A stretch of 64,000 nt of DNA from a virus (lineage: Duplodnaviria > Caudoviricetes), in IMG/VR virus record IMGVR_UViG_3300037067_027616, positions 352,001 through 416,000 of that record. The stretch is one strand, 5' to 3'. How positions within the stretch are numbered: the first letter of the stretch is position 1; each line of letters starts with the position of its first letter. Made by a program: the position numbers and the translations under genes. The notes beneath the pieces are model-generated. The model worked only from the letters and a program-made list of their open reading frames with translations, ran no database searches and was not told where the DNA came from. This document shows positions 58,255-64,000 of the stretch, piece by piece.

Positions 58255-59478
58255 ATGGCCAAAAAGGATTTAACGAAGAAACTCAGGTTGGTACGTTCAG
58301 GACAGGTTGGTGCAGGAGCCACGGCCTCCGCTGATGCCGAACAAAATGTGGATCAATACGGTTTGTCGATGCAGGAGGGTATCACCCGCCTCGAGGACGA
58401 GAACCGTAAGTTGCGCACGGAGCTTAAAACGGCACAACGCGACTCGACGGTGTTCAAGATGCTTGCGGCGGTCATCGAGCAACAACCGCCGTTCTCCACG
58501 TTCACGCCATACAGTTCCATCATAGATCGTAAAACACGCATTACCGAATCGGCCATGCTTGTGTTCTCCGACAGCCATGCCGACCAGGAGATAATCGCCA
58601 ACCGCGTCAGGGGCCTAGAGGAGTACGGGTTCGATATTGCTTGTCAGCGTGCGGAAAGAATAGTAGACACGACGATAAGTCACCTCATCGACAACATGAA
58701 GAACTACAGGTTTGAAACGCTTTACATTGCAGGTCTCGGTGATTACGTGAACGGCGAGATACACGGGGCCTCCGAACACAGCAAATGGCACAACGCCTTG
58801 AAGAATTCCATGGGAATGGGCGAACTGTTTGCCATGATGATAACCGATCTTTCAAGGTACTTCAAAAAGATTGTCGTGTGCAGCGTGTCCGGCAACCACG
58901 GTCGCAGATCAGCCAAGAAGGACTACCGAGGTGCACACGACAATTGGGATTACCTTGTAATTTCCCATGCCGCCACAAGGTTGAAGGGACTCATCGAGCA
59001 AGGCCGGGTGGAGATAGTTGCTCCGGACGCGTGGTCGATGATTGTGAATATATACGGATGGAATTTTGTTCTCAATCACGGTGACGACATCAGATCTTGG
59101 AATAGTCTCCCATGGTATGGGATCGAGAGGAAGACCCGCCGGCTCAATGCCATCGGGACTGTGACCGGGCAGATGCCAAATTATTATCTGTTTGGTCATT
59201 TTCATAATATGGGTTCACAACAGCATACGACGGGGGAGACGATCGTAAATGGAAATTGGTGTGCCACAGACGAATATGCTTTGGAAAGTCTCGGGGCCTA
59301 TTCGGAGCCTTATCAATGGCTCATGGGAATTCACCCCACCTATGGTCTTACATGGCGCCTTCCAATAAAACTCAGGAAGAAGGATTGGCGTGAGTCTCTC
59401 GGTAAGGCTTCCAGGTACACTATTACACAACTTGAGGGTAATTCGTTGGTGGGGGTTGACAAAGTTACTGAAGCGTAG
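58255..59478 (+). CDS. Calcineurin-like metallophosphoesterase with N-terminal coiled coil
   Basis: SDSH, LGD, GNHGR, HGD, GHFH motifs. Confidence 0.9.
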   Translation: MAKKDLTKKLRLVRSGQVGAGATASADAEQNVDQYGLSMQEGITRLEDENRKLRTELKTAQRDSTVFKMLAAVIEQQPPFSTFTPYSSIIDRKTRITESAMLVFSDSHADQEIIANRVRGLEEYGFDIACQRAERIVDTTISHLIDNMKNYRFETLYIAGLGDYVNGEIHGASEHSKWHNALKNSMGMGELFAMMITDLSRYFKKIVVCSVSGNHGRRSAKKDYRGAHDNWDYLVISHAATRLKGLIEQGRVEIVAPDAWSMIVNIYGWNFVLNHGDDIRSWNSLPWYGIERKTRRLNAIGTVTGQMPNYYLFGHFHNMGSQQHTTGETIVNGNWCATDEYALESLGAYSEPYQWLMGIHPTYGLTWRLPIKLRKKDWRESLGKASRYTITQLEGNSLVGVDKVTEA

Positions 59479-59490: not shown

Positions 59491-59657
59491 GTTGTGGTTC
59501 TTTCTCATTCCGGTCAGCACTCCATGCGAGGGCGTACATGTATAGCTCAATTGGATAGAGCGCAAGACTATTAATCTTGAGGTTGCGGGATCATATCCTG
59601 CTACAAATGTTACACACGCACTAGCGACTTGTGCTGATTGGAATGAGGAAGAACAAC
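59491..59657 (+). ncRNA. Array unit 1: structured RNA with 24-bp closing stem, conserved core and tRNA-like domain (anticodon-position AUU)
   Basis: 59497-59520 pairs with 59631-59654 (3 G-U); core TCCAT..GGCGTACA / ACGCA..GACTT; D arm GCTC/GAGC, anticodon arm CAAGA-CTATTAA-TCTTG, T arm GCGGG-ATCATAT-CCTGC. Confidence 0.8.
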
Positions 59658-59660
59658 TCT

Positions 59661-59797
59661 TTGAAAGTAAGTCTGCTCTCCACACCGGGGGCCTACATTC
59701 GATGGATAGTCGATGCTACGTACCGGGTTCTCCATAAGCCGTAAGTGCTTATGGTGGCTCGGTAAAGCAACCGGAACTCGAGCAGGTTTACCTTCAA
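59661..59797 (+). ncRNA. Array unit 2: structured RNA with divergent core and two-hairpin cargo
   Basis: TTGAAAGTAAGTCTGCTC pairs with GAGCAGGTTTACCTTCAA; core TCCAC..GGCCTACA / AAGCA..AACTC; hairpin CCATAAGC-CGTAAGT-GCTTATGG. Confidence 0.7.
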
Positions 59798-59798
59798 T

Positions 59799-59962
59799 TT
59801 GCTCTTTCACATTCTGGCCAGCACTCCATGTTGGGGCGTACATTGCGATTAGCTCAATGGTAGAGCGCATTCCTTAAGAGAATGATGTCGCGGGCTCGAA
59901 ACCCGTATTGCAAACCAAAACACGCATTAACGACTTGTGCCGGCTAGAATGAGGAAGAGCGA
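59799..59962 (+). ncRNA. Array unit 3: structured RNA with closing stem, conserved core and complete embedded tRNA
   Basis: 59801-59824 pairs with 59937-59960, with compensatory changes relative to unit 1; core TCCAT..GGCGTACA / ACGCA..GACTT. Confidence 0.8.
59843..59917 (+). tRNA. Atypical tRNA/tRNA mimic, anticodon UAA, embedded in unit 3
   Basis: Acceptor TTGCGAT/ATTGCAA + A + CCA; D arm GCTC-AATGGTA-GAGC; anticodon arm CATTC-CTTAAGA-GAATG; short variable loop; T arm GCGGG-CTCGAAA-CCCGT. Confidence 0.65.
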
Positions 59963-59965
59963 TGC

Positions 59966-60072
59966 TCTTTGACACAGACTCTCGTCCTCTATGCTCAGGG
60001 CGTACATTCGATACTACCATTAAGGTTTTGAATTAACGCACGAGTGACTTGAACGGGAGCCTGTGACAAAGA
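59966..60072 (+). ncRNA. Array unit 4: minimal structured RNA (core + small hairpin)
   Basis: TCTTTG-A-CACAGACTCTCGT pairs with ACGGGAGCCTGTG-A-CAAAGA; core TCTAT..GGCGTACA / ACGCA..GACTT; apical ACC-ATTAA-GGT. Confidence 0.75.
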
Positions 60073-60077
60073 CCATA

Positions 60078-60112
60078 GAAGCCGGGGACTTCAAGTTCTC
60101 GGTTTTTTCTTT
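60078..60112 (+). terminator. Rho-independent terminator closing the ncRNA array
   Basis: GCCGGGGACT-TCA-AGTTCTCGGT followed by TTTTTCTTT. Confidence 0.85.
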
Positions 60113-60158: not shown

Positions 60159-60187
60159 GTTACAAATGAGGTTTCAAAAAGTATATT
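60159..60187 (+). promoter_or_regulatory. Sigma70-type promoter for the Ubl-SPFH-TROVE operon
   Basis: GTTACA-17 nt-TATATT, then GGAGG RBS and ATG 60218. Confidence 0.6.
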
Positions 60188-60217
60188 CGATAGGTCGCCA
60201 ATAAAAAGGAGGGTGAG

Positions 60218-60472
60218 ATGGTACACGTTAAGTATGAGGGTCGTTCCGAGGACATCGAGTTTGACGCATTGTTCGCGCAGGATCGCCTGGCTTCTATAGG
60301 TATCCCTGCGGGTGTGGTGCCTACGCCGCAGTCGGTGACGCAACAGCAGATCAAGGTCGCCTTGGCGCAGCATTTCGATCGTGGTTTGACCGAGTTCGAT
60401 GAGATGTATGTCGAGGTCAACCCGAATGGAAACATCACGGTGCGTCCGGAGGCAGTGTTCGGTACCCGGTAA
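60218..60472 (+). CDS. Ubiquitin-like (beta-grasp) small protein ending …RPEAVFG-TR
   Basis: 84 aa; beta-beta-alpha-beta-beta pattern ('VHVKYEGRSEDI…QQQIKVALAQHF…YVEVNPNGNITVRPEAVFG'); strong RBS. Confidence 0.65.
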   Translation: MVHVKYEGRSEDIEFDALFAQDRLASIGIPAGVVPTPQSVTQQQIKVALAQHFDRGLTEFDEMYVEVNPNGNITVRPEAVFGTR

Positions 60473-60548: not shown

Positions 60549-60767
60549 ATGGTTCTTCTGTGGGACGTCATCGAGATAATTTTGGTGCTTGCTATTTTGA
60601 TGTTCATGGTTACCCAGGTATTCCTCCCGATTATACGGGGTACTCCGATGTACCCTTTTTTCAAGTCGAAGGAGCCAAAATTGTCAAAAGATTTGAAGGA
60701 GGCCCGGCAGAAGGTTGTTGAAAGTAACTTGAAAAAAGAGGTTGATGACACTAAGAACATTAAGTAG
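60549..60767 (+). CDS. Small single-pass membrane protein (SPFH partner)
   Basis: aaggag RBS, ATG 60549; hydrophobic 'VIEIILVLAILMFMVTQVFLPII' then charged tail. Confidence 0.65.
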   Translation: MVLLWDVIEIILVLAILMFMVTQVFLPIIRGTPMYPFFKSKEPKLSKDLKEARQKVVESNLKKEVDDTKNIK

Positions 60768-60813: not shown

Positions 60814-62010
60814 ATGCAGACGAGAAATGATCAGTTGTCCGCCCGTATCCCGCTTTCAGTCAACCGTAGCCTGCACCTTTTCGTGTGGGTCGGGATCTTC
60901 TTCCTTTTTATCCTGGCTTCCTTCAACCTTTGGGAGATGCTTGATTCCGACAAAATCATGGTGATCCAAAGCCCGTTCAAGGGGACATTGAATTGGCACA
61001 CCAACGCAGGCATCAAGTGGCAAGGAATCGGAAAGGTATCAAAGTACCAAAAAAGGGACATCTACGAGTTTGAGATACCCGTGCGTTTCAACGATGGCGG
61101 ACACGGGACCATCGTGGGATCCATACAGTATGACATGCCCATTGATGCAGAGAATTTGACAGAGTTGCACACGAAATTTGGCAGCCAGAAGGCGGTGGAG
61201 TCGGCCCTCATTCAGACGGTGACCAACAAGGCGATTTACATGACGGGCCCCCTTATGTCATCTAAAGAGTCCTATGCGGAACGCAGGAATTATCTCATAC
61301 GGTACGTAGAGGATCAAATCGAGAACGGCGTGTACAAGACCGTAAGCCGTGAGCAGAAGGTCATAGATCAGATGACCGGGCAGGAGAAAACGGCCACCGT
61401 TGTCGAGATCGTGTTGAAGGATGGTATTCCGGAAAGGCAGGAGAATGCCGTGTTGCAGGAGTTCGGGATACGGACATTCAACTTCTCCATCTTGAAGTTG
61501 CCGTATGACGATGCGGTGGAAGGCCAGATTAAGGCCCAGCAACAGTTGGCGATGGACGTCCAAACCAGCATAGCCGAAGCCAAGAAAGCAGAGCAACGTG
61601 CCATCACGGTCGCCAAGAACGGCGAGGCGGAAGCCATGAAGGCAAAATGGGAGCAGGAAGTGGTTAAAGCAAAGGCCGTGACCCTTGCAGAGCAGAGTAA
61701 GGAAGTGGCAAAGCTCGAAAGGGACGCCTCTGAGTTCACTAAACAGAAGAACATCCTTGATGGAGAGGGAGAGGCCGCCAAGAAACGCCTTGTAATGCAG
61801 GCCGATGGCGCCCTTACGCAGAAGCTTGAAGCATGGGTGCAGGCGCAACAGTACTACGCCGCCGCCCTGCAGAATTTCAAAGGTAACCTCGTTCCAAGTG
61901 TCATCATGGGGGAATCCGGAAAAGGTTCGAGTAGCATGGATCTCATAAACCTTCTTACGGCGAAGACAGCGAAGGATCTTGCGTTGGACATGGAGATGAA
62001 GGGAAATTAA
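60814..62010 (+). CDS. SPFH/band-7 (prohibitin/flotillin-like) membrane protein
   Basis: N-terminal TM helix, 'VIQSP..G', 'VRFNDGG', long Ala/Glu/Lys coiled coil, 'VPSVIMG'. Confidence 0.85.
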   Translation: MQTRNDQLSARIPLSVNRSLHLFVWVGIFFLFILASFNLWEMLDSDKIMVIQSPFKGTLNWHTNAGIKWQGIGKVSKYQKRDIYEFEIPVRFNDGGHGTIVGSIQYDMPIDAENLTELHTKFGSQKAVESALIQTVTNKAIYMTGPLMSSKESYAERRNYLIRYVEDQIENGVYKTVSREQKVIDQMTGQEKTATVVEIVLKDGIPERQENAVLQEFGIRTFNFSILKLPYDDAVEGQIKAQQQLAMDVQTSIAEAKKAEQRAITVAKNGEAEAMKAKWEQEVVKAKAVTLAEQSKEVAKLERDASEFTKQKNILDGEGEAAKKRLVMQADGALTQKLEAWVQAQQYYAAALQNFKGNLVPSVIMGESGKGSSSMDLINLLTAKTAKDLALDMEMKGN

Positions 62011-62015
62011 CAGAT

Positions 62016-62065
62016 GAGGGACGGAGTGGTGGTCGCCGTCCCTCGGCGACCACCGCGGCCACCAC
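62016..62065 (+). promoter_or_regulatory. Multi-stable hairpin/pseudoknot just upstream of the TROVE-like gene RBS
   Basis: GAGGGACGG/CCGTCCCTC stem; its loop GTGGTGGTCG is complementary to both CGACCACCGC and CGGCCACCAC downstream. Confidence 0.55.
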
Positions 62066-62082
62066 ATAAAATGGAGGAACAG

Positions 62083-63672
62083 ATGAACAGGCGTGTTGCA
62101 GCTCCCGCACCTCAGGCAGTGGAATCCCAGGACAAGCGCCTTGCGCTTCTCAACGCTTTCATGACGTGTCCGCACAGGGACACCGATCGCATCAAGCAGA
62201 TCCATGACGAGGTGAGGAAGCAGGATCCTGTTTTCTACGCGCACCTTGCTTGTTGGTACGACCGTACCGGGGACATAAGGGATCACAAGGAAGTTTTCGC
62301 TTCCATGTTGACCGTTGACCCCTTCATGGACAACCGTGAGGTCGGCCTCGCCTTGTTCAGGGACATGCCCATTTTCCTCAAGAAGAGGGTCGTGGGATTC
62401 ATCAAGGGCAAGAAGGTGAAGATCCGCACCAAGACCGGTGAGAAGATGACCGTCGAAAAGGGCAAGGCGAAGGGGAAGGTCATCGAGAAGGTCCGGGTCG
62501 AAGAGCGCAAGGTCGGACTCGATGCGAACGTGCCGCACGGACTCAAGACCGAGGTGAAGAACTATCTCCGGTGGCTCGAATCCAATGACAAGCGGTGGGA
62601 CGAGGCGGCCATACGTTCGTTCTGGGATCTCAAGTATCTGTACAAGTCCGGTGGACTGCAGATCAAGCCGAGTCCCAGGGCGCAGGAGATCCTGTTCGAG
62701 GGTAAGGTACCCGAGGGAAGCAAGCTGAACGTCCTTGAGGAGTTCCGCAAGGCCAAGACCCCCGAGGAGGCTGCCAAGCTCATCGTCGAGAACAAGATCC
62801 CGTACACGGTGGCGGTCGGACTCACGGACAAGGTAACGCCAAGCATACTCGTCGCCCTTATCGAGCGGATGTCACCGCAGGAACTTTTGAACAACATCGC
62901 CTCCCTTGAGGAGAAGGGGGCCATGGCTGTTCCGGAGGTCAAGGCCATCATCGACAAGAAGTTGGTGAAGGCCAAGACGGCCAAGGGTGTATCCGCGCTC
63001 AAGTCAAAGACGGCGAAGGCCACGGGGAGGATCAAGGACGAGTCGACCGCGAAGAAGCTGGACGAAATCGCCGACACCCAGATCAAGAGCAAGGGTGTCA
63101 TCAGCCTTTCCACGGCTATTCTTATCGACCGCTCCGGGAGTATGACGGAGGCCATCGAGGTGGGTAAGAGGCTGGCTACGGTTGTTTCCGGAGCCACCGT
63201 TGCCAACCTTCAGGTTGTGGCGTTTGATTCCTCGGCCGCAGAAGTCGTATCCAAGGGCAAGACGTTGAGTGATTGGGAAGATGCGTTCAAGGGCATCAAC
63301 CCTGGCGGACAGACGTCCATCGGGTCGGCTTTGTACTACCTTCTGCGCAAGAAGGTGGTGGTCGAGCAGATCGTGGTCGTGACTGACGAGGGGGAGAACG
63401 CGCTTCCGTGGTTCACCGATATATACGAGAAGTATTGCACGGAGATGAAGGTGAAGCCCCATGTCGTGGTCATGCACGTGGGCGGAGCCGACAAGACGTT
63501 CTCTACGAACCTCACCCGGGCAAAAATCGAATTTGATACGTACACCCCGGAGGGGAGTGACTACTACGGGATGCCTGGTATCATACAGCTTTTGGCTCGT
63601 AAGTCGAAGCTCGACCTCGTCTACGAAATCATGGACGAACCCCTCCGCAAGAGGGTGCCGTTCAAGGGGTAA
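62083..63672 (+). CDS. Ro60/TROVE-like helical RNA-binding domain + vWA (MIDAS) protein
   Basis: Start reassigned to ATG 62083 (GGAGGA RBS). 'DPVFYAHLACWY…IRD' and 'LIERMSPQELLNNIASL' match TROVE-type helical motifs; vWA DRSGSM, VVAFD, GGQTS, VVTDEGEN; Lys-rich. Confidence 0.75.
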   Translation: MNRRVAAPAPQAVESQDKRLALLNAFMTCPHRDTDRIKQIHDEVRKQDPVFYAHLACWYDRTGDIRDHKEVFASMLTVDPFMDNREVGLALFRDMPIFLKKRVVGFIKGKKVKIRTKTGEKMTVEKGKAKGKVIEKVRVEERKVGLDANVPHGLKTEVKNYLRWLESNDKRWDEAAIRSFWDLKYLYKSGGLQIKPSPRAQEILFEGKVPEGSKLNVLEEFRKAKTPEEAAKLIVENKIPYTVAVGLTDKVTPSILVALIERMSPQELLNNIASLEEKGAMAVPEVKAIIDKKLVKAKTAKGVSALKSKTAKATGRIKDESTAKKLDEIADTQIKSKGVISLSTAILIDRSGSMTEAIEVGKRLATVVSGATVANLQVVAFDSSAAEVVSKGKTLSDWEDAFKGINPGGQTSIGSALYYLLRKKVVVEQIVVVTDEGENALPWFTDIYEKYCTEMKVKPHVVVMHVGGADKTFSTNLTRAKIEFDTYTPEGSDYYGMPGIIQLLARKSKLDLVYEIMDEPLRKRVPFKG

Positions 63673-63677
63673 AGATC

Positions 63678-63920
63678 GTGTTCGACTTTGAAAACCTGGA
63701 AGCCGACCTCAAGGATCTCCTCTCGCGTTCGCGGGAGGATGGTTCTTCTTTTGGGTCGTATGTGGAATCGTTCGCGAGTAAATGGCTGGTGAAAACCGAG
63801 CCTATGAAGCATGACATAGTCACACGTTTCTTGAGCGAGAACAAGAGTCCCGCGAGGATACGTCCGCTTGATATGCGCGGCGTACCCCCCGATGGGATGG
63901 GGAAGGCTGATAGTGCGTGA
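63678..63920 (+). CDS. Small hypothetical protein
   Basis: GTG start; GTGA overlap with next gene. Confidence 0.5.
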   Translation: MFDFENLEADLKDLLSRSREDGSSFGSYVESFASKWLVKTEPMKHDIVTRFLSENKSPARIRPLDMRGVPPDGMGKADSA

Positions 63921-64000
63921 ACGACATCCTGTCTGTCATATCCAAGATGGCCTCCGCGGAGTCAACTCTCCTCGGTAGCACCTTCGTGGCACCCGTAGCC
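63917..64000 (+). CDS. Start of next operon gene (3'-truncated): MNDILSVISKMASAESTLLGSTFVAPVA…
   Basis: GTG overlapping the previous stop; frame open to the window end. Confidence 0.55.
   Translation, partial: MNDILSVISKMASAESTLLGSTFVAPVA

Follow-up and report, generated by a model that had tools for sequence, protein, structure and literature searches.

Among the closest described counterparts of the locus analysed here are bacterial operons for ubiquitin-like proteins (Ubls). The Bil operon encodes the Ubl BilA, the E2 BilB, the JAMM peptidase BilC, and the E1 BilD, and it has relatives in the bacterial Bub operons (PMC11601603; PMC1779556, Table 1, row 6d). As in the present locus, separate genes for a small Gly-ending β-grasp Ubl, a JAMM peptidase, and an E1 are gathered in one Bil or Bub operon. 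However, the Ubl described here falls outside the Pfam and PADLOC Ubl models and ends in an aromatic residue followed by Gly, and its gene set contains no recognisable E2. The set also includes a Ro60-like von Willebrand factor A (vWA) protein and an OB-fold/Cys protein, and is carried by huge phages rather than acting as an anti-phage operon of bacteria. The CBASS proteins Cap2 and Cap3 provide a related case, in which the substrate of both an E1-type enzyme and a JAMM peptidase is a C-terminus, frequently one with further residues beyond the reactive Gly or Ala. In CBASS, the cyclase itself is activated and the E1 and E2 are fused, whereas the present Ubl is free-standing and its E1 is a minimal protein of 213 residues.

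QbsE ends in GG-CF, and the JAMM peptidase QbsD removes this two-residue cap before activation by an E1. QbsE/QbsD and CysO/Mec+ are sulfur carriers handled by JAMM peptidases, and the likeness to the present protein lies in a ThiS/MoaD-like carrier with a two-residue cap. Unlike these systems, the present locus has neither a rhodanese-fused E1 nor biosynthetic partners, the Ubl ends in aromatic-Gly, and the partners are of an RNA-binding type. A mature aromatic-Gly end is characteristic of ATG8/LC3/GABARAP and ATG12, and ATG8 carries a short variable tail that is cut before activation by its E1, Atg7. The family described here likewise has Phe, Tyr, or Trp before Gly, followed by a tail of zero to six residues. 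No sequence relationship to ATG8 was detected, however, and the two N-terminal helices of ATG8 are missing from the Ubl model. ATG8 proteins are absent from the best 50 fold matches, the peptidase is a JAMM enzyme rather than an Atg4-type cysteine protease, and the partner is a minimal ThiF-type E1. The resemblance to ATG8 is a parallel in logic and not membership.

A further point of comparison is bacterial Ro60 (Rsr) with its Y RNAs, which the locus recalls in a vWA domain with a MIDAS motif, a weak co-linear TROVE match, and two stem-closed tRNA-like RNAs upstream. Text searches of the literature found no Ro60/TROVE system tied to a Ubl, an E1, and a JAMM peptidase. A review of jumbo phages mentions a TROVE protein and nothing more of such a system, and the Ro60 and ThiF genes listed in an Asgard-virus preprint are not connected with each other there. 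The cassette is apparently an undescribed gene set of huge phages and, without the peptidase, of filamentous cyanobacteria.

The window, that is, the whole 64,000-nucleotide stretch under analysis, comprises bases 352001–416000 of a 466,729-bp virus record. The cassette is sequentially composed of genes for the Ubl, the Ro60-like vWA protein, a 290-residue protein (p290), a JAMM peptidase, and a minimal ThiF-type E1. In the window's phage it extends over 10.7 kb, split by inserted genes. Its features are listed below in window positions, except for the last two, which lie past the window and are given in genome positions.

59495–60110, + strand: two repeats of about 305 nt, in each of which a long stem encloses a tRNA-like module (Y-RNA-like); a terminator-like hairpin follows
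60176–60187, + strand: promoter-like 12-mer AAAAAGTATATT, 42 nt before the Ubl start and overlapping a −10-like TATATT
60218–60472, + strand: Ubl gene, 84 residues, a single β-grasp domain, predicted pro-form
60461–60463, + strand: Gly82 codon, predicted mature C-terminus and predicted adenylation site, the sole invariant column of the family
60464–60469, + strand: Thr83-Arg84 cap, predicted cleaved propeptide (Thr83, 60464–60466; Arg84, 60467–60469)
60549–60767, + strand: small membrane protein, 72 residues, a variable insert (phrog_14464 'membrane protein', E = 1.5e-3)
60814–62010, + strand: SPFH/Band-7 protein, 398 residues, variable (PF01145, E = 8.7e-5, just under the cut-off; phrog_11908, E = 1e-38)
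62014–63672, + strand: Ro60-like protein, 552 residues, a helical N-terminal part and a vWA domain with a DxSxS MIDAS motif
63917–64000, + strand: start of p290 (290 residues, continuing past the window to genome position 416789), a helix, two OB folds, and a C-terminal domain with the invariant Cys252
genome 420909–421286: JAMM peptidase, 125 residues, 8.7 kb downstream of the Ubl gene (Prok-JAB, E = 6e-4, a weak match below the cut-off)
genome 422271–422912: ThiF-type E1, 213 residues, 10.0 kb downstream of the Ubl gene (PF00899, E = 5e-26)

The Ubl gene is preceded by a strong ribosome-binding site, AAGGAGG at 60206–60212, 5 nt upstream of its ATG. The preliminary description had read the protein as ending in NGNITVRPEAVFG-TR-stop, and ORF 60218–60472 on the + strand indeed ends in ...NGNITVRPEAVFG-T-R, or ...RPEAVFG-TR, before two stop codons, TAA TAA. 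A word-index search retrieved 17 close homologs with 59–82% identity on contigs of up to 470 kb. An exhaustive HMMER search of 1.84 billion protein representatives yielded 47 representatives of the family at E ≤ 1e-3. As judged from sequence, the 84-residue ORF is a real, conserved gene. The window protein matches no Pfam family at E ≤ 0.1, and nine diverse homologs match none at E ≤ 1 except for unrelated noise. The cut-offs of ThiS (PF02597), Prok_Ub (PF14454), and the other Pfam Ubl models are not reached, and PHROG, NCBIfam, and PADLOC gave no match.

When 45 sequences of the wider family are aligned, a single column, Gly82, is invariant, and G8, A50, D54, G71, R76, and P77 are near-invariant. 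The aromatic-Gly pair, [F/Y/W]-G, forms the last two residues in 35 of the 59 members tallied. The residue before Gly is Phe in 48, Tyr in 9, and Trp in 1 of the 58 members with a matched terminus, and none has a Gly-Gly end. By contrast, ThiS, MoaD, ubiquitin, and SAMPs have Gly at the penultimate position. The remaining 24 of the 59 members extend past Gly by tails of one to six residues that have no residue in common. The ends seen are none, S, L, V, G, GD, KD, K, I, LINI, W, A, GE, NA, AWR, SGASRK, RG, GH, GI, and KIET. Among the 17 close homologs, ten end at ...FG, six extend past it by a single residue (S, L, or V), and the window protein by two. The Thr-Arg cap is thus one instance of a family-wide trait, variable tails after Gly. 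A single invariant Gly followed by unrelated tails of zero to six residues is, at the level of the alignment, the pattern of a processed Ubl precursor. The expectation that homologs end at ...AVFG or ...AVYG and keep the terminal Gly is borne out by these counts, and by RPEAVYG in 80 of 80 sampled cyanobacterial copies.

The AF2 model of the Ubl shows a β-grasp fold with a pLDDT of 89.5, and residues 82–84 have a pLDDT below 50. The best 50 VIA structure matches are all β-grasp proteins; MoaD ranks first and is aligned end to end. The Atlas neighbours of the protein include Prok_Ub and Ufm1 clusters. The model, the VIA matches, and the Atlas neighbours thus agree with the β-grasp fold on which the preliminary description depended. 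A Foldseek search of the model against the PDB gave no match at E ≤ 0.001, with unrelated proteins in the top rows, and the family profile retrieved only noise from the PDB sequences.

The preliminary description assumed that activation takes an E1 and a peptidase, to be located in the genome. Both are present, the ThiF-type E1 10.0 kb and the JAMM peptidase 8.7 kb downstream, and both are syntenic with the Ubl in related phages. The E1 is encoded by the one ThiF-type gene found in a whole-genome PF00899 search. It consists of a ThiF domain alone, without a rhodanese or other added domain, and is closest to the ThiF and MoeB models; PADLOC E1-E2 models match it at E = 1e-15. The GxGxxG loop is kept, as are D53/D55/R56, K76, and D116/D119/N120/R124. 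Cys168, located in a D-x-C-E-Y-P motif, is invariant. The JAMM motif of the peptidase, E...HxH...S..D, is likewise intact, with E5, H53, H55, S64, and D67 invariant in nine orthologs. A 172-residue protein with no assignment adjoins the E1 and JAMM genes.

A 69-residue ORF lies directly before the E1 gene at genome positions 422049–422258 (L002:12049–12258) and ends in Gly (...SYKIG). It is kept in the closest relative, L004, and missing from the other cassettes. Profile comparison with the Ubl family detects no similarity and so gives no sign of a Ubl paralogue; the ORF could encode a second substrate of the E1.

A complex of the E1 dimer and Ubl residues 1–82 was modelled. The model scores 0.87 (the best of three controls scores 0.00). 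This mark is attained by 58 of 80 complexes of solved structure and by 2 of 110 pairs that are mismatched; because the MoeB–MoaD and ThiF–ThiS complexes are solved, the score may reflect likeness to them and not an interaction of these two proteins. At least 97% of contacts recur across the three runs, and the partner pLDDT is at least 91. Ubl residues 76–82 lie on E1 residues 29, 31–34, and 117–124 and run along residues 141–149 and 159–163. In the model, Gly82 touches residues 32–34 of the GxGxxG nucleotide loop, and Ubl residue 80 touches residues 121 and 124. The modelled geometry is that of MoeB–MoaD and ThiF–ThiS. With Gly82 so placed, a two-residue extension would hold its carboxylate away from the ATP site.

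The Ro60-like gene normally lies directly after the Ubl gene, and orthologs with 50–80% identity occur in all phage loci. The vWA domain matches the Pfam families VWA_2 (E = 1.6e-5) and vWA_Ro60 (E = 0.055), and residues D372, S374, and S376 of the MIDAS motif are invariant. The TROVE part stays under the Pfam thresholds, and the profile of the Ro60-like protein gives a weak co-linear match (E = 0.017) to two PDB chains named 'TROVE domain-containing protein'.

In p290, Cys252 is invariant and lies in an AG[IL]CL motif after a helix and four strands. The order of helix, four strands, Cys loop, and helix hinted at the UBC core of an E2. However, no E2 appeared in VIA, PDB-profile, Atlas feature, or member-by-member Pfam searches, whose lists were filled by OB folds. 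Since no search supported a UBC fold, p290 is not called an E2.

Two genes separate the Ubl gene from the Ro60-like gene in this phage. The 72-residue membrane protein is present in the closest relative, L004, and absent from the other phage loci. The SPFH/Band-7 gene is also found in L004 and is absent from L008–L017, while L006 and L007 have an unrelated Band_7 gene. SPFH proteins are thus not constant members of the cassette. The SPFH/Band-7 proteins of L006 (2914–3894) and of the window (60814–62010) do not match each other by BLAST at E ≤ 0.01, which suggests independent recruitment of membrane scaffolds.

The cassette is more compact in other phages. The locus of homolog P0020 encodes a Ubl that is 54% identical and ends in ...TTFG-GD, followed by a 503–525-residue protein, a Band_7 protein, a methylase, a 278-residue protein, a Prok-JAB protein, and a ThiF protein. 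BLAST between this locus and the window phage identifies five orthologous pairs: the Ubl (53% identity), the Ro60-like/vWA protein (50%), p290 (44%), the JAMM peptidase (41%), and the E1 (48%). Ten further IMG/VR loci were scanned for synteny. Wherever a phage locus extends far enough downstream, the Ubl, vWA, p290, JAMM, and E1 genes lie on one strand and in one order. The full order is found in L006/7, L008/9, L011/12, L015, L016, and L017, at a Ubl identity of just 44–59%, and the cassette of L011 measures 3.6 kb in total. The Ubl tails in these loci are none, GD, GI, RG, KIET, GH, K, and LINI. The cassette is common in huge phages, since for p290 alone at least 242 homologs (clustered at 90%), each of them termed 'hypothetical', occur on contigs of up to 512 kb. 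One p290 homolog, P0065, is located on a 424-kb contig deposited as 'Candidatus Nanoarchaeia archaeon'. Judging from the cassette and the contig size, a contig of a huge phage has probably been binned into an archaeal MAG here.

A 66-residue short form of the Ubl family occurs in 448 species genomes, almost all of filamentous cyanobacteria. Eighty of these loci (L018–L097) were sampled with 8 kb on either side. All 80 copies end in RPEAVYG followed by a stop codon. A Ro60-like ortholog of about 40% identity lies 1–3 kb downstream in 66 loci; p290 is found within 8 kb in 22 loci and the E1 in 20. A JAMM peptidase homolog is found in none of the 80 loci within ±8 kb. Genome-wide searches of five near-complete cyanobacterial genomes also gave none, except for one marginal generic match at E = 0.006. 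An example of a chromosomal cassette is found in Microcoleus sp. K1-B1 (L097:2753–10334), where unrelated NucS-like, DUF433, and DUF4189 genes are interspersed. All of the cyanobacterial cassette proteins are annotated as hypothetical.

The tail-free clade thus lacks the JAMM peptidase and the tail-rich clade always has it, which fits trimming by the peptidase, as one contrast between two clades, phages and cyanobacteria. Four tailed members of bacterial type (P0044, P0047, P0061, and P0029) lie on contigs of only 0.6–3 kb, and the link between tail and peptidase is drawn for phages and cyanobacteria only. Phages with tail-less Ubls keep the JAMM gene. Trimming is therefore not the only role of the peptidase, which suggests that it also removes the modifier from targets.

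Upstream of the Ubl gene, tRNA-like genes are located at 59535–59610 and 59843–59917. ARAGORN assigns them as Asn 'att' and Leu 'taa', and they score 52 and 59 bits with the Rfam tRNA model. Their conserved, repeated flanks pair as a closing stem, which in unit 1 has 24 bp, −69.4 kcal/mol, and a z-score of −7.2. A terminator-like site at 60077–60107 follows the repeat units. This layout of stem and tRNA-like module, directly before the Ubl/Ro60-like operon, resembles that of bacterial Y RNAs. The gene directly before the RNA array (58255–59478) encodes a 407-residue exonuclease-like protein (phrog_284 'exonuclease', E = 5e-38, and a weak metallophosphatase match) and is syntenic in L004 and L017.

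The promoter-like 12-mer occurs five times in the 466,729 bp, against about 0.03 copies per strand expected by chance. A second copy precedes the JAMM gene by 59 nt. The shared element fits co-transcription control of both halves of the stretched cassette. The other copies, at genome positions 431758 (+), 98614 (−), and 61165 (−), precede ORFs of 568, 75, and 171 residues, and all five may mark one small regulon.

From these observations we infer a pathway of cleavage, adenylation, and transfer to a target. The Ubl would be made as a pro-form that ends in Thr-Arg after Gly82, and the two residues would be removed, most likely by the JAMM peptidase of the cassette. The E1 would then bind the β-grasp body, thread the RPEAVFG tail into its ATP site, and adenylate Gly82. 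The activated Ubl would be passed on, probably via a thioester on Cys168 of the E1 and/or Cys252 of p290. The first candidate targets are the Ro60-like protein, encoded by the constant neighbour of the Ubl gene, or its partners, and the peptidase probably also reverses the modification. We assign a probability of roughly 60% to this mechanism as a whole, from pro-form through JAMM trimming and E1 adenylation of Gly82 to transfer. The bare claim that the 84-residue protein is the Ubl of this E1 is rated higher. The preliminary description had offered two readings of the cap. Its proposal that the phage copy needs proteolytic activation is the better supported branch, with the JAMM and E1 genes syntenic with the Ubl gene and variable tails after an invariant Gly.

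The other branch, in which the capped copy is a non-activatable, dominant-negative mimic and obstructs a kindred Ubl pathway of the host, for example the cyanobacterial-type cassette, has fared poorly. Chromosomal cassettes of the same family do exist in bacteria, and the phage copy is capped where host-type copies are uncapped. However, the phage encodes its own E1, p290, Ro60-like protein, and intact JAMM peptidase, and the cap is missing from 10 of the 17 closest phage homologs and from the relatives in L004, L008, and L013. Because the phage carries a complete set and the tails of close relatives vary freely, a mimic is highly improbable; such variation would be surprising if the function lay in the cap. 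Equally far-fetched is the idea that the 69-residue ORF encodes the true Ubl of the E1, leaving another role to the 84-residue protein. The ORF ends in Gly, abuts the E1 gene, and is conserved in L004, but it is found in these two phages only and has no profile similarity to the Ubl family, whereas the E1 is accompanied by the 84-residue family in phages and cyanobacteria alike.

The nature of the E1 and of the best fold matches bears on a sulfur-carrier function. Here the E1 would lead to a thiocarboxylate on Gly82 that donates sulfur, for instance to the tRNA-like/Y-like RNAs or to a small molecule, and the JAMM peptidase would trim the cap, as in the QbsE/QbsD precedent of a two-residue cap. 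MoaD carriers are the best structural matches, ThiF and MoeB are the nearest E1 models, and the cassette contains tRNA-like RNAs and OB folds. A sulfur carrier is nevertheless unlikely: the 213-residue E1 has no rhodanese domain, and no PP-loop thiolase, cysteine desulfurase, or synthase is found among the conserved cassette genes. The terminus is aromatic-Gly rather than Gly-Gly, and what constantly accompanies the Ubl is a vWA protein together with a Cys protein. Improbable, too, is a non-covalent adaptor, a structural or regulatory subunit that binds the Ro60-like protein and/or the E1 through its aromatic-Gly end as a docking peptide, the tail never being removed. Many β-grasp domains are adaptors, the Ubl gene almost always lies directly before the Ro60-like gene, and tails of one or two residues might be tolerated. 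But unrestricted variation behind an invariant final Gly is unexpected for a docking peptide, the E1 that always belongs to the cassette has its adenylation residues intact, and the complex model sets Gly at the nucleotide loop.

Building on the processed, E1-activated Ubl, a wider picture can be drawn, which we offer tentatively and hold to be doubtful as a whole. The cassette may form a self-contained Ubl-tagging pathway tied to an RNA-surveillance particle. Its modifier would be ATG8-like in its aromatic-Gly end and cleavable tail, matured and removed by the JAMM peptidase and activated by the minimal E1. The protein p290 would hand it to the Ro60-like protein, to the proteins or RNA bound by it, or, where SPFH scaffolds are present, to a membrane lipid. 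Huge phages might thereby control the handling of host or phage RNA, and cyanobacteria would run a peptidase-free version for housekeeping or defence.

Descriptions of bacterial Ubl conjugation (Bil, Bub, and CBASS Cap2/3) have to date concerned host defence. In the present case, a complete-looking set of Ubl, peptidase, and E1, drawn from unnamed families, sits in huge phages and is always joined to a Ro60-like protein next to Y-RNA-like genes; the set also occupies chromosomes of hundreds of filamentous cyanobacteria, there without the peptidase. If the proposed chemistry holds, prokaryotes and their viruses would have a link between protein tagging and RNA quality control, and an aromatic-Gly modifier with a cleaved tail, a hallmark of eukaryotic ATG8 and ATG12, would have a prokaryotic counterpart.
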